From contig CACNTU010000002.1 of assembly GCA_902623415.1 (NCBI GenBank), forward strand, positions 10,519-74,518: a stretch of DNA of 64,000 nucleotides, read 5' to 3'. The DNA is from an uncultured Pelagibacteraceae bacterium (GTDB taxonomy: Bacteria > Pseudomonadota > Alphaproteobacteria > Pelagibacterales > Pelagibacteraceae). The position numbers and the translations under genes were made by a program. This document shows positions 3,128 through 53,089 of the stretch, piece by piece; the first letter of the stretch is position 1, and every line of letters starts with the position of its first letter. The notes beneath the pieces are model-generated. The model saw nothing but the letters and a program-made list of their open reading frames with translations, had not been told where the DNA came from and made no database searches.

Positions 3128-4414
3128 ATGAAAAAACAATACTTTATAAATGCAAATATTATAGATCCTCATAACTCTTTAAACGAAAATGGTGGATTAA
3201 TAATTGGAGAAGACGGAAAGATAGAGGCTATAGGAAAAAAGGTAAATGCAAATAATTTACCAACTAGAGAAAAACCTACTGACTTAAAAGGTAAATATAT
3301 ATTTCCTGGTATAGTGGATATGAGAGTTTTTGTAGGCGAGCCAGGATATGAATATAAAGAAAATTTTAGGACTTTAAGTAATGCAGCATTGTCTGGTGGG
3401 GTAACTTCTGTTGTAACCATGCCTAATACCGATCCAATAATAGATAATGTATCAATTGTGGATTTTTTAAAAAGAAGAGGACGTGATAAGTCAAAAATAA
3501 ATATATTTCCTTGCGCTTCATTAACTCAAAACACAGATGGCACCAATATGACTGAATTTGGGTTACTGGCTAAAAAAGGAATTATTGCTTTTACTGACGG
3601 AGTAAAAACAATTCAAAATACTAGACTTATGTCTAGAATCATGAATTCAGCTAAAGATTTGGGATGTCTTATAATGCAACATGCTGAAGATTACGATTTA
3701 GCTAAAAATGGAATGATTAATTCTGGTATTATTGCAACAAAACTAGGCTTATCTAGCATACCAGATATTGCTGAAAGAATTATAATTGAAAGAGATCTTA
3801 CTCTCTTAGAAAAAACTAAATGTCGATATCATATATCCCAACTATCATCAGGAAAATCTGTAGATATAATTAAGGAACGTAAACAAAATGTTAAATTTAC
3901 TTGTGGTGTATCAATAAATAATCTCTCATTAAATGAAAATGATATTGGAGATTTTAGAACATTTTTAAAATTATCACCTCCACTTAGAAGAGAAGAAGAT
4001 CGAGAAGCTTTAGTTCAAGGATTAAAAGATAAAACTATTGATGTAATTGTTTCTGACCATAAACCTGAAGATGAAGAATCTAAAAGATTAACTTTTGCTC
4101 AAGCTGCAACAGGTGCATCTGGTATTGAAACATTGTTGTCTTTAAGTTTAGAATTATTTCATAACGGATCTGTAAAACTTGAAACTATCATACAAGCATT
4201 AACATCTAACCCAGCAAAAATATTAAATATAAATAAAGGAAACCTGTCTATTGGAAATGATGCAGATTTTTGTATAGTGGATATCAATAAACCATGGATT
4301 GTAAAAAAAGAAAATTTAATCTCTAAATCTAAAAATACATCAATTGAAGATAAAAAACTTCAAGGAAAAGTAACCAATACATTTGTAAAAGGTATAGAAT
4401 TATTTAAAATATAA
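3128..4414 (+). CDS. pyrC: Dihydroorotase (PyrC/PyrC'-type)
   Basis: Amidohydrolase motifs MPNT, PPLR, SDHKP; follows pyrB; metal-binding HxH replaced by DMRVF. Confidence 0.88.
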   Translation: MKKQYFINANIIDPHNSLNENGGLIIGEDGKIEAIGKKVNANNLPTREKPTDLKGKYIFPGIVDMRVFVGEPGYEYKENFRTLSNAALSGGVTSVVTMPNTDPIIDNVSIVDFLKRRGRDKSKINIFPCASLTQNTDGTNMTEFGLLAKKGIIAFTDGVKTIQNTRLMSRIMNSAKDLGCLIMQHAEDYDLAKNGMINSGIIATKLGLSSIPDIAERIIIERDLTLLEKTKCRYHISQLSSGKSVDIIKERKQNVKFTCGVSINNLSLNENDIGDFRTFLKLSPPLRREEDREALVQGLKDKTIDVIVSDHKPEDEESKRLTFAQAATGASGIETLLSLSLELFHNGSVKLETIIQALTSNPAKILNINKGNLSIGNDADFCIVDINKPWIVKKENLISKSKNTSIEDKKLQGKVTNTFVKGIELFKI

Positions 4415-7618: not shown

Positions 7619-7869
7619 AAAAAATATTAATTATCATAACTGTTTACTTAATAAATACTATGCCAGTATTAGCTGAAAAAAATGATTGCTCTGAAATGAA
7701 AAAACTTTCAAAAGAGTACTTAACTTGTACAGCTAAAAACATTAAAGCTGCTGCTAATAAGAAGAATAAACAAATTAAAGAAGGTTCTGCGAAAAAGACT
7801 GAGCAAATAGCTGAGAGCACAAAAAAAATTATAAATAATGTAAAGAATAAAATTAAAAAAAAGGAATAA
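7615..7869 (+). CDS. Small hypothetical exported protein
   Basis: GTG start overlapping topA stop, signal-peptide-like N-terminus, two Cys, Lys-rich tail. Confidence 0.6.
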   Translation: MKKILIIITVYLINTMPVLAEKNDCSEMKKLSKEYLTCTAKNIKAAANKKNKQIKEGSAKKTEQIAESTKKIINNVKNKIKKKE

Positions 7870-7872
7870 TCC

Positions 7873-8334
7873 ATGAGCTTTGAGAAAAAAATTCAAGAAC
7901 TTAAAATTGAACTTCCCGAAGCTAAACCTCCAGTAGGTTCTTATGTTGCTACAAAAATTACAGGAAATCTTTTATTTATATCTGGTCAAATCTCAATCGC
8001 AGACAATGGTGAGCTAATAAAAGGTAAAATCGGAAAAGAATTATCAACAGAACAAGGATATGATGCTGCCAAAAGATGTGGATTAAGTATTGTTGCTCAG
8101 GCAAAAGTAGCATGTAATGGTGATCTATCTAAAATTAAATCATGTATAAAATTAACAGGTTTTGTTAATTCAACAGAAGATTTTACTGAACAACCAAAAG
8201 TAATTAACGGTGCTTCCGATTTAATTGCTACCATATTTGGTGATGCTGGAATGCACACAAGAGCTGCAGTAAGTACAAATAGTTTGCCGCTTGGAGTATC
8301 AGTTGAAGTAGATGCTATATTTGAATTAAATTAA
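7873..8334 (+). CDS. RidA/YjgF family protein
   Basis: LLFISGQ, NGASDL, HTRAAV, LPLGVSVEVD motifs. Confidence 0.92.
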   Translation: MSFEKKIQELKIELPEAKPPVGSYVATKITGNLLFISGQISIADNGELIKGKIGKELSTEQGYDAAKRCGLSIVAQAKVACNGDLSKIKSCIKLTGFVNSTEDFTEQPKVINGASDLIATIFGDAGMHTRAAVSTNSLPLGVSVEVDAIFELN

Positions 8335-8336
8335 TT

Positions 8337-9635
8337 TTATCTTCCAATTCCAAAATATCTATAACCCATTTTTTTAATTTTATTAGGAGAAAAAATATTT
8401 CTCATATCGTAAATAATAAGATTTTTATTTTTAGAATATTTTTTAAAATTAATTGATTTAAAGTCATTCCATTCTGTATGTATGATAATTAAATCTGATC
8501 CTTCAATAGACTCTTGTATTGATTTTGAAAATTTAACATTATTTAATTTATTAAATTCTTTTTTAGAACCAGTTGGATCAAAATATTTAATTTTTGCACC
8601 TCTTTTAGATAAATAGGGAATTAATTTCAAACTAGAAGAATCTCTCATATCATCCGTATTGGCTTTGAATGTTACTCCCAAAAAGGATATTTTTTTATTT
8701 CTAATTTTATTTTTCAATATCAAATTAACTCTTTTTTGTAATATATCTGATCTGATTTCATTAGATTTAATAACACTTTTTATGACAGATAAATTAGTTT
8801 TAAATTTTTCTCCAGTAGAAACAATTGCTTTAGTATCTTTTGGAAAACATGATCCTCCATAAGCGGGTCCTGCTCTTAAAAATCTACTTCCAATTCTTTT
8901 ATCAAGACCAATACCTATGGAAATATCCTCAACATCAATGCCAGTTTTTTCACATAAATTTGCAATTTCATTAATAAAAGTAATTTTTGTTGCTAAGAAA
9001 GCGTTTGAAGCATATTTAATTAATTCTGCTGCTCGTCTATTAGTAGATACAAACTTCGCACCTTTAGAAATTAAAGGAGAATACAAATTTTTTAATATTT
9101 TCTGAGATCTTTTATCATTACTTCCAATAACAACTCTATCAGGATAAATAAAATCTCTAATTGCCTCTCCTTCTCTTAAAAATTCTGGATTTGAAACTAT
9201 TGAGAAATATCTTCTGCTTACTTTTTTAGAAATAATCTTCTCAACCTCATCTCCTGTTGTTACAGGAACTGTGGATTTGTTTATTATAATTTTAAATTTA
9301 TTTATAGATTTTGATATTTCTTTTGCTACCAAATAAACTTGACTTAGATCTGCACTATTACTATTTTTTTTTGTTGGAGTTCCAACACATATAAAAATAA
9401 TATCTGACTTTTTAACTGCTTCTTTTAAGTTTGTTGAAAAATTAAGTCTTTTGTTTTTATAATTTTTTAAAACTAATTCCTCTAAACCCGGTTCATAAAT
9501 TGGGATAATGCCTTTTCTTAAATTATTAATTTTATTATCGTCTTTGTCTACACATATTACATCGTTACCTAAGTCAGCGAAACAAACGCCACTAACTAAA
9601 CCAACATAACCTGTACCAATCATGCATAATTTCAT
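8337..9635 (-). CDS. ugd: UDP-glucose 6-dehydrogenase
   Basis: GTGYVG, NPEFLREG, YGGSCFPKD motifs. Confidence 0.95.
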   Translation of the reverse strand: MKLCMIGTGYVGLVSGVCFADLGNDVICVDKDDNKINNLRKGIIPIYEPGLEELVLKNYKNKRLNFSTNLKEAVKKSDIIFICVGTPTKKNSNSADLSQVYLVAKEISKSINKFKIIINKSTVPVTTGDEVEKIISKKVSRRYFSIVSNPEFLREGEAIRDFIYPDRVVIGSNDKRSQKILKNLYSPLISKGAKFVSTNRRAAELIKYASNAFLATKITFINEIANLCEKTGIDVEDISIGIGLDKRIGSRFLRAGPAYGGSCFPKDTKAIVSTGEKFKTNLSVIKSVIKSNEIRSDILQKRVNLILKNKIRNKKISFLGVTFKANTDDMRDSSSLKLIPYLSKRGAKIKYFDPTGSKKEFNKLNNVKFSKSIQESIEGSDLIIIHTEWNDFKSINFKKYSKNKNLIIYDMRNIFSPNKIKKMGYRYFGIGR

Positions 9636-10447
9636 AATTTACTTATCACTTTAGAAGAATTGATGTAACCGTTCATTGTTCCACAATCAAGATATTTTCC
9701 CTCAAAATTATGAGCTATAAATTTTTCTTTATCATTTATTAATTGTTGAATTGCATCAGTTATATGAATTTCATTTCCCTTATTTGGTTTTAATGATTTA
9801 AGTTTCTTAAAAATTGTACGGGGCAGTATATATCTACCTATAACTGCATTATTTGAAGGTGCTTTTTTAAAGGATGGTTTTTCTACAACACCATTAATTA
9901 TATAATTTCTTTTATTTAATTTTTTATTTAATTTATAAATTCCCCATCTTGAAACAGTTCTTTTATTTACTTTCATAGATGCCATAACAGAAGCACTATA
10001 TTTCTTATGAACTTTAATCATCGCTTTTGAGCAATTTTTTTTTATTATTAAATCATCTGGTAACAACATTAAAAAATATTTATTTTTAATATATTTTTGT
10101 GTTTTAAGTACAGCATCACCTGTGCCTTTAGGAATATTTTGATAAACAAATTTTATTTTTTTTTTATATTTTAATATTTTTTTATACTCATTAAGTATTC
10201 TTTGATCCTTCTTTTTTTTAATAATATTTTTATAAAAATTATCACTGTAAAAATATTTTTTAATCATTTGTTTTTTGGTAGATATTATAAAAACTATTTC
10301 TTTAATTCCAGCTTCAACACATTCGTCAAGAATATATTCAATTCCAGGTTTTCCGTTTATAGGTAAGAGCTCTTTAGCAAAAACACTAGTTAAAGGCAGC
10401 AACCTTGTACCTAAACCAGCCAAAGGAATAATTGCTTGTTTAATCAT
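9632..10447 (-). CDS. galU: UTP-glucose-1-phosphate uridylyltransferase
   Basis: AIIPLAGLGTRLLP, VEKP, YLDCG motifs. Confidence 0.92.
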   Translation of the reverse strand: MIKQAIIPLAGLGTRLLPLTSVFAKELLPINGKPGIEYILDECVEAGIKEIVFIISTKKQMIKKYFYSDNFYKNIIKKKKDQRILNEYKKILKYKKKIKFVYQNIPKGTGDAVLKTQKYIKNKYFLMLLPDDLIIKKNCSKAMIKVHKKYSASVMASMKVNKRTVSRWGIYKLNKKLNKRNYIINGVVEKPSFKKAPSNNAVIGRYILPRTIFKKLKSLKPNKGNEIHITDAIQQLINDKEKFIAHNFEGKYLDCGTMNGYINSSKVISKL

Positions 10448-10481
10448 TTAAATGTTTTACTTATTAAATATTTTAATACAA

Positions 10482-11297
10482 ATGAAAATTTTATTAGACA
10501 ACTCCTCATTATTTGAATCATTAAGGCAATTTAATGACATAGGTTTTGTACCTACAATGGGAGGTATACATAAAGGTCATTTATCACTTATAAATAAATC
10601 AAATAGACTCTGTAAAATCACAATTGTAAGCATTTTTGTTAATCCAAAGCAGTTCAATAATAAACAAGATTTAAAATCTTATCCTAGAAATATTAAGGAA
10701 GATCTTAAAATTTTAAAAAAAACTAAAAAAGTTGATTTTGTCTATCTTCCAAGATTCAAAGATATTTATAAAAATAAAAATAAATCTAAAATTAAACTAA
10801 ACAAAAAAGATGTAATACTTTGTGCTAAATATAGAAAAGGTCATTTTGAAGGTGTTTTAGATGTTATGGAAAGACTAACAAAAATTGTTAACCCAAAAAA
10901 GATATTTATGGGAGAAAAAGATTTCCAACAATTATACTTAGTTAAAAAACGATTAGAAAAAAAACACAAAGCAAAAATTATCCCTTGTAAAACTATTCGT
11001 GATAAGAACAATATAGCTTTATCATCTAGAAATTTCCTTTTAAATAAATTAAATTTAGAGGTTGCAGCAAATATCTATAATGAACTAGAAAATATTAAAA
11101 AAAACATTAAAAAGAAAAAAAATATCGTAAACTTTTTAAATCATAAAAAAACAGAATTAATAAATAATTATAAAATCAAAATTGATTATTTAGAATTAAG
11201 AAATAAAAAAAATTTAAAAATTTCAAAAAAAATAAATAACTCAAGATTATTTATTGCTTATTATTTAAATAATGTCAGATTGATAGACAATATCTAA
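10482..11297 (+). CDS. panC: Pantoate-beta-alanine ligase
   Basis: GFVPTMGGIHKGH, FVNPKQF, GEKDFQQ, LSSRN, RLIDN; start placed at second ATG. Confidence 0.93.
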   Translation: MKILLDNSSLFESLRQFNDIGFVPTMGGIHKGHLSLINKSNRLCKITIVSIFVNPKQFNNKQDLKSYPRNIKEDLKILKKTKKVDFVYLPRFKDIYKNKNKSKIKLNKKDVILCAKYRKGHFEGVLDVMERLTKIVNPKKIFMGEKDFQQLYLVKKRLEKKHKAKIIPCKTIRDKNNIALSSRNFLLNKLNLEVAANIYNELENIKKNIKKKKNIVNFLNHKKTELINNYKIKIDYLELRNKKNLKISKKINNSRLFIAYYLNNVRLIDNI

Positions 11298-43790: not shown

Positions 43791-43866
43791 GCCCTTGTAG
43801 CTCAGCTGGTAGAGCAATTGATTTGTAATCAATAGGTCCGCGGTTCGAATCCGTGCGGGGGCACCA
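43791..43866 (+). tRNA. tRNA-Thr(TGT)
   Basis: GCCCTTGTAGCTCAG...TTTGTAA loop...GGTTCGAAT...CCA, 76 nt. Confidence 0.97.
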
Positions 43867-46172: not shown

Positions 46173-46206
46173 AATTGATTTGTAATCAATACATCCGCGG
46201 ATCAAA
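46173..46206 (+). repeat. Degenerate 3'-part copy of tRNA-Thr (att-like remnant)
   Basis: AATTGATTTGTAATCAATAcaTCCGCGGaTCaAA versus tRNA AATTGATTTGTAATCAATAggTCCGCGGtTCgAA. Confidence 0.85.
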
Positions 46207-47126: not shown

Positions 47127-47182
47127 TGGTACCCTTGGCCTCAAATTGGCACTCCACAAGCGGCGAGGATTTTAAGTCCTTT
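47127..47182 (-). repeat. Degenerate 3'-part copy of tRNA-Leu (att-like remnant)
   Basis: Aligns to 48741-48800 with several substitutions and a 4-bp gap; ends with shared core TTTTAAGTCCTTT. Confidence 0.88.
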
Positions 47183-48800
47183 ATATTAATATTTATCATG
47201 GTCACTGAATTAAACCAAAATCTAGTTGTTTTTCACTATCGTCTCTTGATCTTGGTATTGATAATGCGGGATCAATATTTGATTGTGGAATATCTAAATT
47301 AAATTTTTTGTCTAAAAAATCAAAAGAATTAACAAGCATCATTTTATTAAATTTTTTATTATTTATTTTATACATCCCTACTGACAGTGCTTCTTTTGTC
47401 ATTTCTTTCGTGGGCTCTCTCGTGCTGATAAATATTCCCCCTAGAGCATTATTTTTTTGAACAGTACGATTAAATTCTCTCACTTCCTTAACACCTATAT
47501 TTTTTCCTCCCTTAACTGAAATTAATATCTTTTTATAATCCTCTTTAGAATCAAACGTTTTAATATAAATCAATCCATCTATACCACCATCAGCTCCCTT
47601 TTTAATTGAACCATCTGACTTCCTAACGTAATCTTGAGCACCAGGAATGTTGTTAACTGCCCAATGTTGAAATTCATACCACTTGTCTGAACCAATCTCT
47701 TTTGCTTCTTTTAGCATGTTGTCTAAATCTCGTTTAGTTTTGGGTAAACCATGGACTTTAAAATTACTTTTTGGAAAAGCATTTTCAATATTATTTTTTA
47801 TTATATTGATTGATAAACACGTTATGTCAATTCCTATCCATTTCAATCCTAGTTCTTCGGCTACATGTATGCTAGTACCACAACCTGCGAAAGGATCTAA
47901 AACTGTATCACCTTTTTGAGTAGATGATTGAATTATTCTTCTGAGTAATCTTCTTGGTTTTTGAGTGGGATATCCTGTTCTTTCTGGATCAGAAGAACTT
48001 AGAGGTTGGATTTCCCACCAATCCTCTGGATGTTTCCCTTTTTCGTTTGGTTTATATGAGTCATAAACTTTATCTCCTCTAAAAGCTTTGGCTTTTGAAT
48101 TTTTGAGTCTTTCTGCAGATGCTTCTGAATAAGGTATTCTCACAGGATCAACATTAAAAAAGTAATCTTTTGTTTTTGAATATCTAAATATTACATCATG
48201 TTTCTTAGCGAAATCTTTTTTAGAAACTCCTCCACCTCTGTAACACCAAATAATTTCATTTCTAAAATTTTTAACACCAAAAATGTTATCCATAATAAGT
48301 TTAATATAATGACTTGCTGTAGGATCGCAGTGAAGGAAAATAGTTCCGTTCGGTTTTAATATATTTCTTAATAAATTTAATCTAGCAGAAATATTTACTA
48401 AATAAGATAGCATATCACTTTCAGCCAAAAAACTTTTTAGAGCGGTTAAAAAATCTTTAATTTGTGTATTCGCTTCACCTAACATAAAATCATCATAAAC
48501 TTTTGCTGTATATTCATCCCACTTCCAAAAATCGGAAAATGCAATAGTCTGTGCTTTATTAAAAGACCCATCTGGTGTTGGAAAAAAAATATTATAATTT
48601 CTCTTACTATTAAAAGGTGGATCTAAATAAATAAGATCAACAGAATCATTTTTGATTTGTTTCAATACTTCAAGATTATCGCCGTAAAATAATTGATTCA
48701 CTTATAAACTATATCAAAGATATTCTAATTATTAAATAAGTGGTGCCCTCGGCCAGACTCGAACTGGCACTCCGCAAGCGGCAAGGATTTTAAGTCCTTT
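47170..48800. mobile_element. One-gene island on the 3' side of tRNA-Leu carrying a DNA methyltransferase fusion
   Basis: Flanked by intact tRNA-Leu and its decayed 3' copy in direct orientation; no integrase. Confidence 0.72.
47202..48701 (-). CDS. Beta-class N6A/N4C DNA methyltransferase with C-terminal Mrr-like nuclease-fold domain
   Basis: YLDPPF precedes YPTQKP and LDPFAGCGT; C-terminal ADGGIDG...ISVKGG...VREF...GIFIS. Confidence 0.85.
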   Translation of the reverse strand: MNQLFYGDNLEVLKQIKNDSVDLIYLDPPFNSKRNYNIFFPTPDGSFNKAQTIAFSDFWKWDEYTAKVYDDFMLGEANTQIKDFLTALKSFLAESDMLSYLVNISARLNLLRNILKPNGTIFLHCDPTASHYIKLIMDNIFGVKNFRNEIIWCYRGGGVSKKDFAKKHDVIFRYSKTKDYFFNVDPVRIPYSEASAERLKNSKAKAFRGDKVYDSYKPNEKGKHPEDWWEIQPLSSSDPERTGYPTQKPRRLLRRIIQSSTQKGDTVLDPFAGCGTSIHVAEELGLKWIGIDITCLSINIIKNNIENAFPKSNFKVHGLPKTKRDLDNMLKEAKEIGSDKWYEFQHWAVNNIPGAQDYVRKSDGSIKKGADGGIDGLIYIKTFDSKEDYKKILISVKGGKNIGVKEVREFNRTVQKNNALGGIFISTREPTKEMTKEALSVGMYKINNKKFNKMMLVNSFDFLDKKFNLDIPQSNIDPALSIPRSRDDSEKQLDFGLIQ

Positions 48801-48826
48801 GTGTCTACCAATTTCACCACGAGGGC
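48741..48826 (-). tRNA. tRNA-Leu(TAA)
   Basis: GCCCTCGTGGTGAAATTGGTAGAC...CTTAAAA loop, long variable arm, GTTCGAGT...CCA. Confidence 0.96.
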
Positions 48827-48908
48827 ATTTGTGAATTTCATGAGTGTTTATGCTAATATTTATAATTGAACAAGGTTAATAAGTAAAATTTTTTTATTTT
48901 ATCTTCCT

Positions 48909-48930
48909 ATGTGCTGGTCTTGTGCTGGTT
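48909..48930. repeat. ATGTGCTGGTCTTGTGCTGGTT (2x TGTGCTGGT, 11-bp period); putative arm sites
   Basis: Exact second copy at 51666-51687. Confidence 0.85.
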
Positions 48931-48956
48931 GTCCTATAAAATCCTATATCTAAAAT

Positions 48957-48976
48957 GTTCTATTAAGGTGAAGGCT
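48957..48976 (-). other. Truncated pilin N-terminal coding stub (AFTLIE)
   Basis: Minus strand A GCC TTC ACC TTA ATA GAA C; reads TTG-K-N-R-A-F-T-L-I-E-H then diverges and stops. Confidence 0.8.
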
Positions 48977-48983
48977 CTATTCT

Positions 48984-49490
48984 TCAACAATAGCCTCCGT
49001 AATCAGATATATCTATCTGATCAGTAAGTTTATCTTTATTATCATTATAGACAGTTTCTATATGAATTATTGGTTTTGAGTTCGTACATCTATTATAAAA
49101 TTCAACAGACCCTTTTATCCCTCTTGGGCCAAAGTTTATTGCGGGATATGTTGGATCATTAAAAGGATGATCTTTTATAACACACCTTAAATGATAAACC
49201 ATATTATTCATAACTGTGCTTACAGATGCAGGAAAAGTTTTAATATTTTGCGATCTACCACAGTTAAAATCTTTTGTTGAGAGTCTATTATTAAAATAAC
49301 CACCATTTATATTTGCTTGCAAAAATGTTGTGTGTAAAAATTTTACTGCGGTTTTGTGATTAGATTTAGCAGCATTAATTTTAGCTGCATTAGTATACCC
49401 ATTATAAGCAACAACACCTACTGCAGCTAGTATACCGATGATTGCTACAACGACTAGGAGTTCTATTAGGGTGAAAGCTTTTTTATTCAA
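48984..49490 (-). CDS. Type IV pilin-like protein 5
   Basis: TTG start, NKKA|FTLIELL... prepilin motif. Confidence 0.9.
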   Translation of the reverse strand: MNKKAFTLIELLVVVAIIGILAAVGVVAYNGYTNAAKINAAKSNHKTAVKFLHTTFLQANINGGYFNNRLSTKDFNCGRSQNIKTFPASVSTVMNNMVYHLRCVIKDHPFNDPTYPAINFGPRGIKGSVEFYNRCTNSKPIIHIETVYNDNKDKLTDQIDISDYGGYC

Positions 49491-50105
49491 TCACCAACCT
49501 TTTCGTGTATCACGTATTTCCTTTTTTAAAGTTACACAGTTTTTAGAACAATCTCCAGATTTATTAGTATCATCATATTGAGATGTTATTAAAATTATAC
49601 AGACTGGATTGCAGCTTTTAACAGTAACATGGATACCTCCTTTTAGGGGACTATCAAATGCGTTACCAGGGTCCCAAGCAGCTTTAAATTTTTTTCCAAA
49701 CCTTGTATTATAACCTCCTTCTTCATAAGGATTTAACCATTGAACTCCTTTTATTTTTCCACCTTTTGTACCACCTGCTGAATTCTTTGCATGATTAATA
49801 AGAAAATTTATTAATTGTCCTGCCCTACCTGCTCTTCCTCCACCACCAGATATATTACACGAATAATTATAATAATTTGGATCCTCTTGTTTATACATCA
49901 ATGACATGTTTTCAGCTCCCAGCTGACACGTTGCAAGTTCTGCTTCTACTAATTTTACAAAAGTATTAAATTGTGATTTCACGGTTGCTTTATTAGCACC
50001 AATTGTAAATTTAGAATAAGCAACAACCCCTACTGCAGCAAGAATACCGATGATGGCTACAACGACTAACAGTTCTATTAGAGTGAAGGCTTTATGTTTA
50101 GCCAT
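49491..50105 (-). CDS. Type IV pilin-like protein 6
   Basis: MAKHKA|FTLIELL...VVAYSKF prepilin motif; Gly-rich variable domain. Confidence 0.92.
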   Translation of the reverse strand: MAKHKAFTLIELLVVVAIIGILAAVGVVAYSKFTIGANKATVKSQFNTFVKLVEAELATCQLGAENMSLMYKQEDPNYYNYSCNISGGGGRAGRAGQLINFLINHAKNSAGGTKGGKIKGVQWLNPYEEGGYNTRFGKKFKAAWDPGNAFDSPLKGGIHVTVKSCNPVCIILITSQYDDTNKSGDCSKNCVTLKKEIRDTRKGW

Positions 50106-51615
50106 ATAAATTCAAAGTTTTCACAAGCTCAGGATTTTGAAACCAATTATCAATCCATGATTTAATATATGATTTAACAGATTCTATACGTTGCTCTCTT
50201 GAGGCATTATCCAAACATGTTTCAAGGGGCTCTAAATACTGAAGTTTTCTTGATTGTTTTTGTTGTTTATTTTCCTTATCGACTTTAGGAATTTTAAAAT
50301 CATATTTAACATTATTACAAACGATATATCTCTTTGGTTTATAAATAGTAACTTCTGACACTAAAATTTCATTAAATAAATTAAGATCATTTTTGTAATT
50401 ATTTAAATTATTCAATGTCAAATATGCTTTTGATATATACGAACCAGTTTTTTTTTTTAAATCTACATTTTTATTAAATAACTTAATTGCAAGATCCTTA
50501 TTTTTTTCGACATTGCCCCAACCATTAAAATATATTATTGCGGGATAAGTACTTACAAAATTATTTGAATCTTTTGGGTTTTTAATTTTACTTTGAAAGT
50601 TTTCCATAAGCACAATAGCTTTTTTAAAGTCAGTTTTTTTATCAGAGCATTCATATATTGATTTAGTTACATCCATTGATGTTCTGCCTAATAATGAAAA
50701 TGTATAATACGCTGTATTCAATAAAGAATCATTTTCGTACAAATAATTATTATATTTTAAAATAAATAAACACTCATCTTTATCTTTTTTCAAATCAAAA
50801 TTCTTGGAAACGTCCATAAGATAGTCTTCCATAGCTAAAAGGTAACCTTCTTTTGCAGCCTCTTTATAAATCTTTATTCTTTCTTCAATGCCTACTTTGG
50901 CGGTATAGGATCCTGTATATATAAGAGCTGGATTATATAATTTTTTTTTATCTAATGAGGCTAAATATCTCTTGAATAAATACTCATCATTAATTTCATA
51001 CAGCGTATAAAAAGATGTTGGATATGTAGCTAGTATATCTTTGGCGATTTGGCTACCTTTGTGAGCCTCCTTTAATAATATTCTAGTAGCCTTACAATGA
51101 TTAAAATTAAATAGATTTTCATCTTTTAGAGCGTAAACTTCTTTAACAAATGAATAAGGTTTGAATTGGAAATAATCTATAAATTGTGTGTGAGCTTTAA
51201 AGAAATATTGAGAGTATTTTCCATATCCAGTGTATGCTATACCAGTTGAATAACATTCTCCCCATTCATCATTCCAAACAATATACTCAAACAGAACTCT
51301 TTCTTTTAAATTTTTATAACCACCTAATGAAATTAAACTTACAATAACACTAAAAATAAAAACACAAACTAAACCTTCAATTGTGTAAAATACGTGTTTA
51401 AATTTTTTTCGAATTTTTTTATAGTATTTAAATATCTTAATCTTATTTCTAAGCACCCATATATATGCAAATGTTATGGGCATTATTAGTGCTACTAATC
51501 CAAATAAATCACTTAAGTTCTGAATTTTTTTATCCAATTGTAAGCCAAGTGCCAAAGCTACAATCCAAAGAATTATATAAAAATAAAATGGTGGTTTTTT
51601 AAAATTAAAATTCAT
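50098..51615 (-). CDS. Hypothetical membrane protein, about 3 N-terminal TM helices, possible Sel1-like repeats
   Basis: Hydrophobic N-terminal segments; YKEAAKEGYLLAM and YFNGWGNVEKNKDLAIKLF resemble Sel1 consensus. Confidence 0.65.
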   Translation of the reverse strand: MNFNFKKPPFYFYIILWIVALALGLQLDKKIQNLSDLFGLVALIMPITFAYIWVLRNKIKIFKYYKKIRKKFKHVFYTIEGLVCVFIFSVIVSLISLGGYKNLKERVLFEYIVWNDEWGECYSTGIAYTGYGKYSQYFFKAHTQFIDYFQFKPYSFVKEVYALKDENLFNFNHCKATRILLKEAHKGSQIAKDILATYPTSFYTLYEINDEYLFKRYLASLDKKKLYNPALIYTGSYTAKVGIEERIKIYKEAAKEGYLLAMEDYLMDVSKNFDLKKDKDECLFILKYNNYLYENDSLLNTAYYTFSLLGRTSMDVTKSIYECSDKKTDFKKAIVLMENFQSKIKNPKDSNNFVSTYPAIIYFNGWGNVEKNKDLAIKLFNKNVDLKKKTGSYISKAYLTLNNLNNYKNDLNLFNEILVSEVTIYKPKRYIVCNNVKYDFKIPKVDKENKQQKQSRKLQYLEPLETCLDNASREQRIESVKSYIKSWIDNWFQNPELVKTLNLYG

Positions 51616-51665
51616 AGGCTAATCTTATCAATAAATTTATTAGGTAGTAATCAAATTATCTTTCC

Positions 51666-51687
51666 ATGTGCTGGTCTTGTGCTGGTT
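51666..51687. repeat. ATGTGCTGGTCTTGTGCTGGTT second copy; putative arm sites
   Basis: Identical to 48909-48930, same orientation. Confidence 0.85.
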
Positions 51688-51762
51688 TTCACAAATTAAT
51701 TAACTCTTATTTTCTAATCTTAATTGAAAGCTAAATTAAAGTTATGAGATTTTATAGGATGT

Positions 51763-51790
51763 TTAGACTGCCTTGGACTACTATGGACTG
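51763..51790. repeat. Three 10-bp-period repeats (TTAGACTG/TTGGACTA/ATGGACTG)
   Basis: gtttagactg ccttggacta ctatggactg. Confidence 0.55.
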
Positions 51791-51812
51791 ACTTTAACTT
51801 CTATCCCTCGGC

Positions 51813-51851
51813 TTTTAAGTCCTTTGTGTCTACCAATTTCACCACGAGGGC
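51813..51851 (-). pseudogene. 5'-half copy of tRNA-Leu(TAA) ending at the anticodon loop
   Basis: 39 bp identical to 48788-48826. Confidence 0.9.
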
Positions 51852-51980
51852 ATTAATGAATTTCATGAGTGTTTATGCCAATATTTATAATTGAACAAGA
51901 GGAATAAGTAAAATTTTTTTATTTTATCTCCCTAGGTACAAGTCTAGTACAAGTTCTCCCATATTATCCTATATCTAAAA

Positions 51981-52001
51981 AGTTCTATTAAGGTGAAGGC
52001 T
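51981..52001 (-). other. Truncated pilin N-terminal coding stub (KAFTLIEL)
   Basis: Directly after pilin stop: (T)AA A GCC TTC ACC TTA ATA GAA CT; 20 bp identical to 48957-48976. Confidence 0.8.
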
Positions 52002-52508
52002 TTATTGCCAGTGATATACTTTTTTCTCATAAATTTTATTTGAACCTTGACTGTCTCCTAAATTACCACAAATTCTAAAATATTTTTTACCATTACTCTC
52101 AGTTCCCCACATGAAATGAATATAACCTTGGCTTGGATTACAGTTTTGGCTTGTGCTAACAGCAAGCACTTTTGAGTCATAAGCATTTTGTTGATTCCAC
52201 GTCCACATTATATGATTATAAAAACCATGCATCTTTTGCTCAACTGAAGAATTGTTACAATGACCAGGATTGTATAATGTTTGACCCCATCCTGCTGGAG
52301 CATGTAAACCTAAGCTGCCTCCGTCTATTTCACACATAGCCATTTTGGTTGCCATAAACTTTTCGATGTCGTCAACTTGTCTTTTAACAACATTAACCTT
52401 TGCACTTTTAGTGTACCCATTATAAGCAACCACTCCCACCGCAGCCAAAATACCGATGATGGCTACAACTACTAAGAGTTCTATTAATGTAAAACCATTT
52501 CTTTTCAT
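52002..52508 (-). CDS. Type IV pilin-like protein 7
   Basis: MKRNG|FTLIELL...; start set at ATG 52508 overlapping upstream stop (ATGA). Confidence 0.92.
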   Translation of the reverse strand: MKRNGFTLIELLVVVAIIGILAAVGVVAYNGYTKSAKVNVVKRQVDDIEKFMATKMAMCEIDGGSLGLHAPAGWGQTLYNPGHCNNSSVEQKMHGFYNHIMWTWNQQNAYDSKVLAVSTSQNCNPSQGYIHFMWGTESNGKKYFRICGNLGDSQGSNKIYEKKVYHWQ

Positions 52509-53089
52509 CTGTGAATAATGCAAACAATTGTACTTAAAACTTTGTCAGAACCTGTTGATGAAAAAGTCCAATACTCATCTGTGAGACCGGATTGAACTAC
52601 CATTTCTCTATCACATCCATTTTTTTCAACAGTCAAACTATAAAGACCAATTTGTCCTTTGCACATTTTTTTACCAAGGTGAGCTGACTGTATAGAGGTC
52701 ATATCAGTCCAACCAGACCAAATATCACAAGTTCTATCTTTACCTACACTTCCATACGGATTTTTTACCATACCTTGATATCCAATGTGTGTTTGCAAAA
52801 CATTTTCGTGAAATGGTGTCTTGTTATAGTCTGTAACGTTAGAGCAATCTTTATTTTGACCACCGCCACTATTATTAGTTTGTCTAAAGATTGTCCCTCC
52901 ATTCATAACACACTTCATAGCGTCAGCTTGAATCCATTTTACAATTGCTTTATGATTTTGCTTAACAACAGCTTTTTTAGCAGAACTTGTATACCCATTA
53001 TAAGCAACAACACCCACTGCAGCTAGAATACCGATAATGGCTACAACGACTAAAAGTTCTATTAGGGTGAAGCCTTTTTGTTTAATCAT
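52505..53089 (-). CDS. Type IV pilin-like protein 8
   Basis: MIKQKG|FTLIELL... prepilin motif; six Cys in variable domain. Confidence 0.92.
   Translation of the reverse strand: MIKQKGFTLIELLVVVAIIGILAAVGVVAYNGYTSSAKKAVVKQNHKAIVKWIQADAMKCVMNGGTIFRQTNNSGGGQNKDCSNVTDYNKTPFHENVLQTHIGYQGMVKNPYGSVGKDRTCDIWSGWTDMTSIQSAHLGKKMCKGQIGLYSLTVEKNGCDREMVVQSGLTDEYWTFSSTGSDKVLSTIVCIIHR

Follow-up and report, generated by a model that had tools for sequence, protein, structure and literature searches.

Truncated pilin 5′ ends close two pilin arrays beside tRNA-Leu cassette arms in a Pelagibacteraceae genome and recur in its relatives

The locus described here lies in a 64,000-nt stretch of contig CACNTU010000002.1 from an uncultured Pelagibacteraceae bacterium (the window), whose own assembly comprises 47 contigs at 71% completeness; this partial genome has at least 16 pilin genes. 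Two arrays of type IV pilin genes lie on the minus strand of the window beside an intact tRNA-Leu gene, and each ends in a short piece of pilin coding sequence, referred to here as a stub. Along the minus strand, from 5′ to 3′, the locus reads as follows.

52505–53089, minus strand: type IV pilin of the older unit, 194 aa, with N_methyl motif
52002–52523, minus strand: type IV pilin, 173 aa, cluster c0, with N_methyl motif; last full pilin ahead of stub 1
51977–52030, minus strand: stub 1, by sequence match; ATG at 52030, leader M-R-K-K-Y-I-T-G-N-K-A, then pilin codons 1–7 (F-T-L-I-E-L-F)
51924–51976, minus strand: outer arm of the older unit; AGA spacer first, then a TATAGGA/TATGGGA pair and the word ACTTGTAC twice
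51810–51923, minus strand: second copy of the tRNA-Leu upstream region and of the tRNA 5′ half, ending ..GGACTTAAAA in the anticodon loop; no tRNA gene
51656–51809, minus strand: inner arm of the newer cassette; GCCGAGGGAT, AGTCC repeats, an inverted TATAGGA, and CCAGCACA twice (51656–51690)
50098–51615, minus strand: membrane protein of 505 aa, without a Pfam family; first cargo gene of the newer cassette
49491–50105, minus strand: type IV pilin, 204 aa, with N_methyl motif; cargo of the newer cassette
48984–49490, minus strand: type IV pilin, 168 aa, cluster c4, with N_methyl motif; last full pilin ahead of stub 2
48952–48987, minus strand: stub 2, by sequence match; pilin leader TTG-K-N-R-A, then pilin codons 1–7 (F-T-L-I-E-H-F)
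48899–48951, minus strand: outer arm of the newer cassette; AGA spacer first, then a TATAGGA pair, CCAGCACA twice at an 11-nt period, and GAAGATAAAAT
48827–48898, minus strand: region upstream of tRNA-Leu, a putative promoter and leader that belongs natively to the tRNA and is copied with each cassette
48741–48826, minus strand: tRNA-Leu, intact, anticodon UAA

In the newer cassette, the inner-arm word CCAGCACA is the same as the outer-arm word, and a homologue of the 505-aa membrane protein heads the equivalent cassette in a related genome, G167. The promoter role ascribed to the tRNA-Leu upstream region is putative; in a promoter and terminator scan, promoter-like sites were no commoner than in shuffled sequences and no terminators were found.

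A first-pass annotation of the window had reported the same 20 bp just after the last pilin stop codon of both Leu arrays, an observation that holds: the 20-mer AGCCTTCACCTTAATAGAAC is present in exactly two copies, on the minus strand at 48957–48976 and 51982–52001, with stub 1 beginning immediately after the TAA of the pilin at 52523–52002 and stub 2 beginning 8 nt past the TGA of the pilin at 49490–48984. Six pilin 5′ ends match this 20-mer with 1–3 mismatches (0.02 expected by chance). The 10-mer TAATAGAACT, said to be common to eight pilins, is indeed found at every pilin position listed for it and also in stub 1 (9 copies versus 0.44 expected), and stub 2 has TAATAGAACA in its place. The stub is pilin 5′ coding sequence, as had been proposed, and similarity to the pilins, which had been placed as ending at E5/L6, runs to codon 7; two stubs in relatives read GAG CTT CTA (E-L-L) before the junction. 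Full pilin genes carry PF07963, whereas the stub ends after residue 7 and then reads into non-pilin sequence and is therefore a fragment, located at the 3′ (downstream) end of the array, past the stop codon of the last pilin, and not promoter-proximal. Its junction with the arm lies 3 nt outside the outer arm of the cassette. A possible start codon survives in each stub (ATG at 52030 in stub 1, TTG at 48987 in stub 2), and the long leader of stub 1 shares bases with the 3′ end of the preceding pilin. Two side observations concern stub sequence. The homology on offer, ~17–21 nt, is short for RecA-type recombination, and repeated events could point to something more specific; and the motif ATAGAAC is loosely like the arm motif ATAGGAY, a likeness noticed post hoc.

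Several other assignments were considered and rejected. The stub is not a small coding gene, as the open reading frames span 17–39 codons and are not conserved at their ends. No significant stub closes the third pilin array of the window, which lies beside tRNA-Thr, and a degenerate stub proposed after the last pilin of that array was discarded when 313–408 of 2000 shuffles matched its local-alignment score. The identity of the two 20-mers in the window was not accepted as proof of gene conversion within the genome; GCC and TTA set them apart from their orthologues at two positions only, which is a weak signal.

The two modules that flank the stubs form a direct repeat of 197 nt (48785–48981 and 51810–52006; 89% identical, 3025 nt apart), earlier described as a duplicated 189-bp module whose similarity stops at the other edge of the stub; the alignment does end there, a few bases upstream of the stub. 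The module contains the TATAGGA pair, a cassette-specific 8-nt word in two copies, the region upstream of the tRNA, and the 5′ half of the tRNA, and it forms the outer arm of cassettes that lack an integrase and are stacked within the tRNA-Leu(UAA) anticodon loop. The extra tRNA-Leu copies, which occur in many genomes of the genus, all end at ..GGACTTAAAA in the anticodon loop. The conserved arm begins at TATAGGA (48948) in ~40 copies from relatives, and an unoccupied site (L054) has the tRNA upstream region and no arm. Within a cassette, the 8-nt word pair ~126 nt past the tRNA-half junction and the one 103 nt ahead of the next tRNA half are the same (18 of 18 cassettes), and the pairs differ between neighbouring cassettes; with their different word pairs, the two modules of the window are two separately acquired units. 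The crossover that duplicated the module is located in the tRNA and not in the stub, and the earlier tie between module duplication and recombination at the stub gives way to insertion in the tRNA-Leu anticodon loop. Judged from sequence, the module has the appearance of a tRNA attachment site, with a partial tRNA ending at a fixed point and element-specific arm words on both sides, and with no integrase in the element.

The arrangement is reminiscent of pelagiphages of the HTVC019P type. HTVC105P and HTVC109P integrate in the middle of tRNA-Leu(TAA), with HTVC109P supplying the 5′ part of the tRNA (bioRxiv 10.1101/410191), and in both genomes we find the tRNA-Leu 5′ half between the integrase and RNA polymerase genes. 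An incoming element that brings the tRNA 5′ part leaves a 5′-half copy upstream, which accounts for the duplicated module. Unlike these phages, the cassettes are 1–6 kb in size and have no integrase or phage genes. Their arms, with the TATAGGA pair and word pairs specific to each cassette, are also unlike the arms of the cultured phages, and pelagiphages have nothing equivalent to the stub. A 9-kb viral contig (L084), which encodes an integrase, a primase, and RusA, shares the core of the cassettes and the design of their arms. No integrase gene was found inside the cassettes, the L084 integrase used as query found no match in five cassette-bearing genomes, and the viral contigs scanned for the arm/upstream junction gave no match; with no cassette-type integrase found in the five genomes, the insertion mechanism is proposed by analogy. 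Integrase-less cis-mobilizable elements at tRNA genes likewise stack as cassettes split by partial copies of one tRNA, and the stacked cassettes here, like tandem-accreted elements, lack canonical mobile-element genes. Partial tRNA repeats have been noted in SAR11 genomic islands (PMC11796062), a report that covers the partial repeats only and contains neither the arm structure nor the pilin stub; no description of the two was found in the literature searched.

Stubs recur in other genomes, as the first-pass annotation had suggested checking. We found 14 in 12 Pelagibacter genomes (~3% of the 401 sampled), all with one and the same junction and with eight different leaders. A search in which the distance to the arm was left free (0–30 nt) returned the 8-nt spacing only (10 matches in 9 of 401 genomes), and its reversed control gave 1 match. 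Most of the arms surveyed lack a stub (37 of 50, two of them after pilin genes), and pilin arrays abut stub-less arms in G167, G233, and L069. A pilin start lies within 800 nt upstream of 12 of 13 stub-bearing arms versus 2 of 37 stub-less arms. The succession of stub, arm, and partial tRNA is also present in the closed 1.35-Mb genome of G167 and in ten other assemblies, and a near-identical left unit is present in G508. The stubs are spread over at least seven arm word types and over c0 alleles with identities down to 79%, and the stub together with the TATAGGA pair makes up ~45 nt of near-identity between otherwise unrelated arrays.

Full pilin genes occupy the position of the stub in some alleles. 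Following a c0 pilin that is 99% identical to that of the window, L088 and L089 have a full pilin in the same register where the window has stub 1, and following a c4 pilin that is 95% identical, the metagenome contig L072 has a full pilin with a homologous leader. The order in L089 is c0, extra pilin, stub, such that c0 alleles are followed either directly by the stub or by one pilin and then the stub. In G408, the leader on the stub is that of the first pilin in the cassette with the 505-aa gene; this stub sits beside a 3′ remnant of the 505-aa gene, with no pilin left. Both arrangements that had been proposed as worth looking for exist: stubs lacking the downstream pilin body that the alleles in L072, L088, and L089 carry, and an empty site with no pilin upstream (G408). 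Because occupied and empty alleles follow the same upstream gene, exchange happens within the ~20-nt stub. The c0 stub has orthologues in G413, G570, and G371, and the c4 stub has one in G548. Certain codons are seen in stubs only, TTT at codon 7 in 12 of 14 and CAT at codon 6 in 4 of 14, versus 0 of 53 full pilins, and these are common to stubs with different leaders; the two stubs with GAG CTT CTA differ from the other twelve at three positions. These patterns indicate that the 3′ end of the stub reflects shared descent and that its 5′ part has been exchanged.

Depressed synonymous variation and recombination breakpoints had both been anticipated at L3–L6, and neither is particular to this motif. 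The mean synonymous entropy is 0.89 bits for codons 3–6 and 1.01 bits for codons 7–28, and several codons beyond 3–6 are more fixed than codons 3–6 themselves; the depression is no stronger there than in the rest of the 28 conserved codons. Among orthologous pilins, the fraction of same-residue codons that differ is 0.34–0.38 in codons 8–28 versus 0.12 in the bodies. Codons 8–28, three times more diverged than the body, do not travel with it, and breakpoints are therefore not confined to the L3–L6 motif. They are instead scattered across the whole conserved 28-codon segment (~90 nt), and this 5′ segment has a history separate from that of the pilin body.

We consider it probable (roughly 0.6) that the stub is a vestigial pilin 5′ end, a deletion scar that perpetuates itself as a terminal repeat and is exchanged by homology-driven recombination. 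The stub–arm junction most likely arose once, by a deletion that would have cut a pilin gene after codon 7; a single origin is suggested by parsimony. The second cassette, comprising the 505-aa gene, two pilins, and its own stub and arm, would have entered the tRNA-Leu anticodon loop and thereby duplicated the arm together with the 5′ half of the tRNA and the region upstream of it, with the inserting recombinase probably a tyrosine integrase of the pelagiphage or satellite type acting in trans, as the resemblance to these phages suggests. The stub would then act as the last direct repeat of the pilin array. An exchange driven by homology, be it unequal crossing-over, slipped-strand deletion, or gene conversion, between this repeat and the conserved 5′ end of whichever pilin lies upstream would remove terminal pilins and always regenerate a stub, which would bear the leader of the cut gene; the same exchange with incoming DNA could add pilins. 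For the c0 alleles, gains at the stub are as parsimonious as losses. Of the earlier proposal that cassettes enter and leave by recombination at the stub, exchange within the ~20-nt stub is retained, and a dedicated site is not.

It is rather unlikely that the stub is selectively kept as a homology anchor, through which the array end would capture, by homology-facilitated recombination, pilin bodies of any array in DNA that the cell takes up. Its persistence in ~3% of genomes across the arm word types and c0 alleles noted above would fit such a role, as would the ~45 nt of near-identity between unrelated arrays, and the order c0, extra pilin, stub in L089 fits an insertion. However, the gains carry no evidence of polarity, the stub is absent from most pilin arrays and most arms, and a terminal repeat persists under deletion alone, with no need for selection. 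Somewhat more doubtful is the idea that the stub is a maintained landing pad, a ~20-nt coding fragment retained where the array meets the cassette arm, to capture or shed pilin bodies, whichever array they come from. This might proceed by very short-homology recombination on DNA taken up through the pili themselves, or by a phage-encoded arm-binding recombinase that mistakes ATAGAAC for ATAGGAY.

We think it quite improbable that the stub is an inert scar, left by a single pilin truncation and copied in a local duplication of the module with no later recombination. Such a scar would share one junction everywhere, as the stubs do, and the stub-specific TTT and CAT codons do indicate common descent; the stub reading frames, moreover, have no conserved length or stop. 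The stubs of the window nevertheless differ in leader and in upstream pilin, each with its own orthologues in other genomes, and eight leader classes are not derivable from one scar by point mutation; the full genes allelic to the stub contradict this reading as well. In addition, the modules come from separately acquired units with different word pairs and so did not arise by local duplication.

A dedicated site-specific system is very unlikely. On this explanation, TAATAGAAC would be the recombination site, each pilin a cassette bounded by it, and the stub a resident attI-like acceptor whose recombinase would come from a phage or be encoded elsewhere. The identical junction in 14 of 14 stubs, the eight leaders, the occupied and empty alleles, the exchange points within ~20 nt, and the empty stub of G408 with no upstream pilin are all features that such a system could produce, but its machinery and products were not found. 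No open reading frame for an IntI-type tyrosine recombinase is present in 43–55 kb of the window. PF00589 gives one match per complete genome, an Xer-like tyrosine recombinase, and none in the 71%-complete assembly itself, and no IS110/Piv-type or serine recombinases were found in five genomes. The stub and the pilin–pilin junctions, on both strands, fold into hairpins no better than shuffled sequences (z of −1.0 to +1.0), and no headless pilin bodies, the reciprocal products, were seen among ~93 pilins. In the unitig-like contigs compared with the locus, breaks fall at the conserved pieces and the joints belong to other strains or to repeats, which speaks neither for nor against circles or deletions. 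The unremarkable synonymous conservation of codons 3–6, the separation of codons 8–28 from the body, the stub-less arms abutting pilin arrays in G167, G233, and L069, the stub-less tRNA-Thr array, and the distal position of the stub likewise argue against the attI-like acceptor of the first-pass annotation. The likeness to integrons lies in single-gene units between repeated sites, in an apparent gain or loss of single units among strains, and in an empty terminal site. The locus differs in that IntI and a folded attC are missing here, the coding 5′ end of each gene doubles as the repeated site, the stub is distal whereas the integron acceptor is promoter-proximal, and breakpoints extend over ~90 nt. 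Finally, an assembly or amplification artefact, which a 71%-complete genome in 47 contigs with easily misjoined repeats might invite, is extremely unlikely given the same arrangement in closed G167 and ten other assemblies and the near-identical left unit in G508.

Other systems offer partial parallels to the vestigial pilin end that we favour. Rhs/CDI orphan modules, which Poole et al. in 2011 and Koskiniemi et al. in 2014 are said to have described, reportedly keep short conserved coding pieces beside displaced variable modules; as with the stub, a short conserved coding fragment provides homology for swapping or deleting modules in a tandem array. Their fragment, however, precedes a displaced variable 3′ module and an immunity gene, whereas the stub consists of a 5′ end alone, lacking any variable part, in an array whose members are all complete genes. 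Pilin diversity arises by recombination at conserved pilin coding sequence in Neisseria pilE/pilS, Moraxella Piv inversion, and the R64 shufflon. The Neisseria pilS copies are the reverse of the stub, missing the 5′ end and retaining the variable 3′ part. Piv and Rci are dedicated enzymes that recombine inverted repeats, and no recombinase of this kind was found here.

Pelagibacter is among the most abundant marine bacteria, and its pili are candidates both for phage receptors and for organs of DNA uptake. The stacked cassettes have their real attachment site in the tRNA-Leu anticodon loop rather than in the pilin motif; with this assignment, present evidence gives no ground for claiming an integron-like system in SAR11. 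The stub provides a precise, easily searched marker of the sites at which pilin arrays shrink or grow, and could be used to gauge array turnover in natural populations. If it were a landing pad after all, Pelagibacter would have a programmable end-of-array pilin exchanger.

In terms of position, the stub, a leader plus the first codons of a pilin gene, closes both pilin arrays at tRNA-Leu. The 20-mer AGCCTTCACCTTAATAGAAC occurs exactly twice in the window, on the minus strand at 48957–48976 and 51982–52001, each time after the stop codon that closes a two-gene array, in agreement with the first-pass annotation; six pilin 5′ ends match it with one to three mismatches (chance expectation 0.02 matches). 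The invariance reported for the 10-mer TAATAGAACT was likewise verified in all eight pilins (44465, 44931, 45421, 46051, 49459, 50071, 52477 and 53055), and the 10-mer is also present in stub 1, the copy at 51982–52001. That the stub contains a pilin-derived piece holds, but this piece does not end at E5/L6 as first described: it reaches codon 7, because E-L-L precedes the junction in two stubs of relatives. The two modules form a direct repeat of 197 nt (48785–48981 versus 51810–52006, 89% identity) in a fragmented source assembly, and their similarity runs out just upstream of the stub, as had been claimed. The conserved arm, the outer end of an integrase-less cassette, begins at TATAGGA (48948 and 51973), with the stub ending 3 nt (AGA) short of it.

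The features that identify the module are these:
48741–48826, tRNA-Leu(UAA), a single copy in the ARAGORN prediction
51656–51690 and 48899–48933, the word pair CCAGCACA of the window

The second module terminates within a copy of the tRNA-Leu 5′ half, its end point being the anticodon-loop sequence ..GGACTTAAAA. The region upstream of tRNA-Leu, for which we infer a putative promoter role, is conserved genus-wide and often duplicated, with matches in 187 of 301 family genomes (70 of 86 in the genus). Twenty regions of relatives (15–20 kb each) carry stacks of one to three units at tRNA-Leu, every one of which closes with a partial tRNA-Leu copy cut at the identical point, followed by inner-arm sequence of a few families. 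The 8-nt word pair lying about 126 nt past the tRNA-half junction is the same as the pair 103 nt ahead of the next tRNA half in 18 of 18 cassettes, and neighbouring cassettes carry unlike pairs. At unoccupied sites (L054), the tRNA upstream region directly adjoins a divergent HAD-type gene and the TATAGGA pair and tandem words are absent; both are therefore parts of the inserted units rather than of the tRNA. The integration site of cultured pelagiphages is tRNA-Leu(TAA), HTVC109P supplying the tRNA 5′ part (10.1101/410191), and both HTVC105P and HTVC109P carry 40–45 nt of the tRNA-Leu 5′ half between integrase and RNA polymerase. From the tRNA-half end point, the word pairs, the unoccupied sites and these phage parallels, it follows that the duplicated module is an attachment-site arm and that the duplicating crossover lies inside the tRNA and not at the stub. 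The module belongs with tRNA-targeted tyrosine-integrase sites, from which it differs in having no integrase of its own.

Cassette cargo is diverse (pilins; SDR with a TetR regulator; McrBC with a PD-(D/E)XK nuclease; proteins of unknown family) and includes no integrase. The 8-nt word stands twice, at an 11-nt period, on both arms of each tRNA-Leu cassette (18/18; in the window at 48899–48933, 51656–51690 and 51924–51958, and in L036–L047 and L053 from relatives); more than 10 different words occur across genomes, with no resident integrase to read them. In five genomes we found one Xer-like tyrosine recombinase per genome, or zero in the window's own incomplete assembly, and no IS110/Piv-type or serine recombinase. 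An IMG/VR contig of 9013 nt (L084) represents a small element of viral type that encodes a 549-aa integrase, a primase and RusA. Its word pair, tRNA-Leu 5′ half and GGGATTCAC/AGTC inner arm follow the design of the cassettes, and it is a candidate source of an integrase acting on them in trans.

Partial tRNA repeats in SAR11 islands were noted in 2025, without further anatomy (PMC11796062). A second locus, adjoining gatB and 48–58 kb away from the real tRNA-Leu, was observed in five relatives (L048–L052, from G271, G255, G263, G205 and G041; ~10180–10830): the order is a variable cargo gene, the arm, the tRNA-Leu upstream region and the tRNA 5′ half, the last joined without a gap to the ATG of a conserved 216-aa gene. 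In G233 (L046, 8086–8700), two pilin genes immediately follow the tRNA-Leu upstream region, the pilin start codon being the ATG of ..ACTCATGAAA. A 406-aa gene paired with a HAD-type phosphatase lies between partial and full tRNA-Leu copies in L042 (G221, 7800–9980) and L055 (G191, 8749–10925), lacks the TATAGGA/word arm, and looks like an older kind of insertion. In the window, the middle and 3′ part of tRNA-Leu recurs as a 43-nt copy (91%) at 47140–47182, on the far side of a DNA methylase that carries a fused Mrr-type nuclease domain (47202–48701), and tRNA-Leu is therefore used from its 3′ side too. A 34-nt tRNA-Thr copy (88%, 46173–46206) closes the four-pilin island adjoining the intact tRNA-Thr (43791–43866), whose tRNA-proximal end carries 11-nt repeats of the TGCAACA type and lacks a significant pilin stub.

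The stub recurs without a pilin body in relatives. A junction-blind search for FTLIE codons lacking a pilin body, run on the regions retrieved for their resemblance to the module, yielded two stubs in the window, two in G167 and none elsewhere, and a junction-pattern search of 401 genus genomes added 10 stub genomes and one spurious match. As that pattern presupposed the junction, the search was rerun allowing any distance of 0–30 nt to the TATAGGA pair: 10 of 10 matches (9 genomes) fell at 8-nt spacing, against one match for the reversed control. The total of 14 stubs in 12 genomes, all with a single junction, is a lower bound because an exact TAATAGARC was required, and the relatives counted are not independent samples. 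Stub leaders fall into eight classes (MVKRKA, VKQKA, MKKKA, MNRKA, MKQKG, MNYRG, KNRA and the long MRKKYITGNK(A/G)), with at least seven different arm words linked to them; a pilin start lies within 800 nt upstream in 12 of 13 stub-bearing arms versus 2 of 37 stub-less arms. At 3178–3260 of L036 (G167), cargo comes after a stub, a TATAGGA pair and one lone word, without the tRNA upstream region or half, which suggests that a deletion has joined the word pairs of two adjoining cassettes. Beyond the window, contigs C13 and C21 of its own assembly hold eight pilin genes (seven on C13), hence at least 16 in this 0.89-Mb partial genome, where stubs number only two.

The proposal that the stub is an attI-like acceptor is judged unlikely on synonymous, breakpoint, fold, product, recombinase and coverage tests. 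In a set of 53 different pilin 5′ regions, 48 use ATA for I4 and 49 use GAA for E5, and V10, I12, G14, A17, V22 and A23 are fixed at least as strongly; synonymous entropy averages 0.89 bits over codons 3–6 and 1.01 bits over codons 7–28, which is no special depression at L3-I4-E5-L6. Some of the fixed codons are genome-rare (ATC, GTC), and in codons 8–28 of the 53 genes GTC at V8, ATC at I12 and GGG at G26 are nearly fixed, a sign of concerted evolution or of selection on the nucleotide sequence along the whole conserved segment. For orthologous bodies (the sets of c0 and c4, the last full pilins before stubs 1 and 2), the fraction of differing codons among those for the same residue is 0.26–0.36 in codons 1–7, 0.34–0.38 in codons 8–28 and 0.12 in the body, a pattern that breakpoints confined to E5/L6 would not yield; the whole conserved 5′ segment has a history separate from the pilin body. 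Searches found no folded site at the junctions, no headless pilin bodies as reciprocal products and, in five genomes, no dedicated recombinase for the motif. Pilin arrays meet arms without a stub in G167, G233 and L069, no significant stub is seen in the window's tRNA-Thr array, and the stub lacks defining features of an integron.

Allelic states after the last pilin bear on exchange at the stub. The 173-aa c0 pilin (52523–52002) is followed by the stub in the window and three other genomes, and by whole pilin genes in the same register, with the same overlapping leader, in two single-cell genomes (L088 and L089, c0 99% identical); in one of these, the whole pilin in turn precedes a stub with a different leader and then the arm. 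The 168-aa c4 pilin (49490–48984) is followed by whole pilins in metagenome contigs L071, L072, L074 and L075 (in L072, c4 is 95% identical and the next pilin's leader is homologous to that of stub 2, the copy at 48957–48976), and by an arm, with the stub absent, in L069/L070. The predicted empty site is present in G408 (L056, 1440–1540): the leader of its stub is of the type found in the first pilin of the cassette with the 505-aa membrane-protein gene, and the stub follows a ~20-nt remnant of that gene family's 3′ end, with no pilin left upstream, so that the array is empty. These stub/whole-gene allele pairs are the expected product of exchange between a pilin 5′ end and the terminal stub.

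No description of the stub was found in the literature searched. Its behaviour is that of a partial repeat at the end of a tandem array, and it resembles the conserved fragments that Rhs/CDI orphan arrays keep. Silent pilS copies are its mirror image. TTT at codon 7 (12 stubs) and CAT at codon 6 (four stubs) each occur in 0 of 53 full pilins, yet both are common to stubs with different leaders. The stub 3′ end and its arm are thus passed on together, and exchange affects the leader and first codons. We favour, at a probability of roughly 60%, one original truncation of a pilin gene, the simplest account, followed by repeated exchange within about 20 nt of homology. Deletion between the stub and any upstream pilin 5′ end would always leave a stub, which would therefore be self-perpetuating and carry the leader of the cut gene, and the reverse event with incoming DNA would add a pilin to the array.
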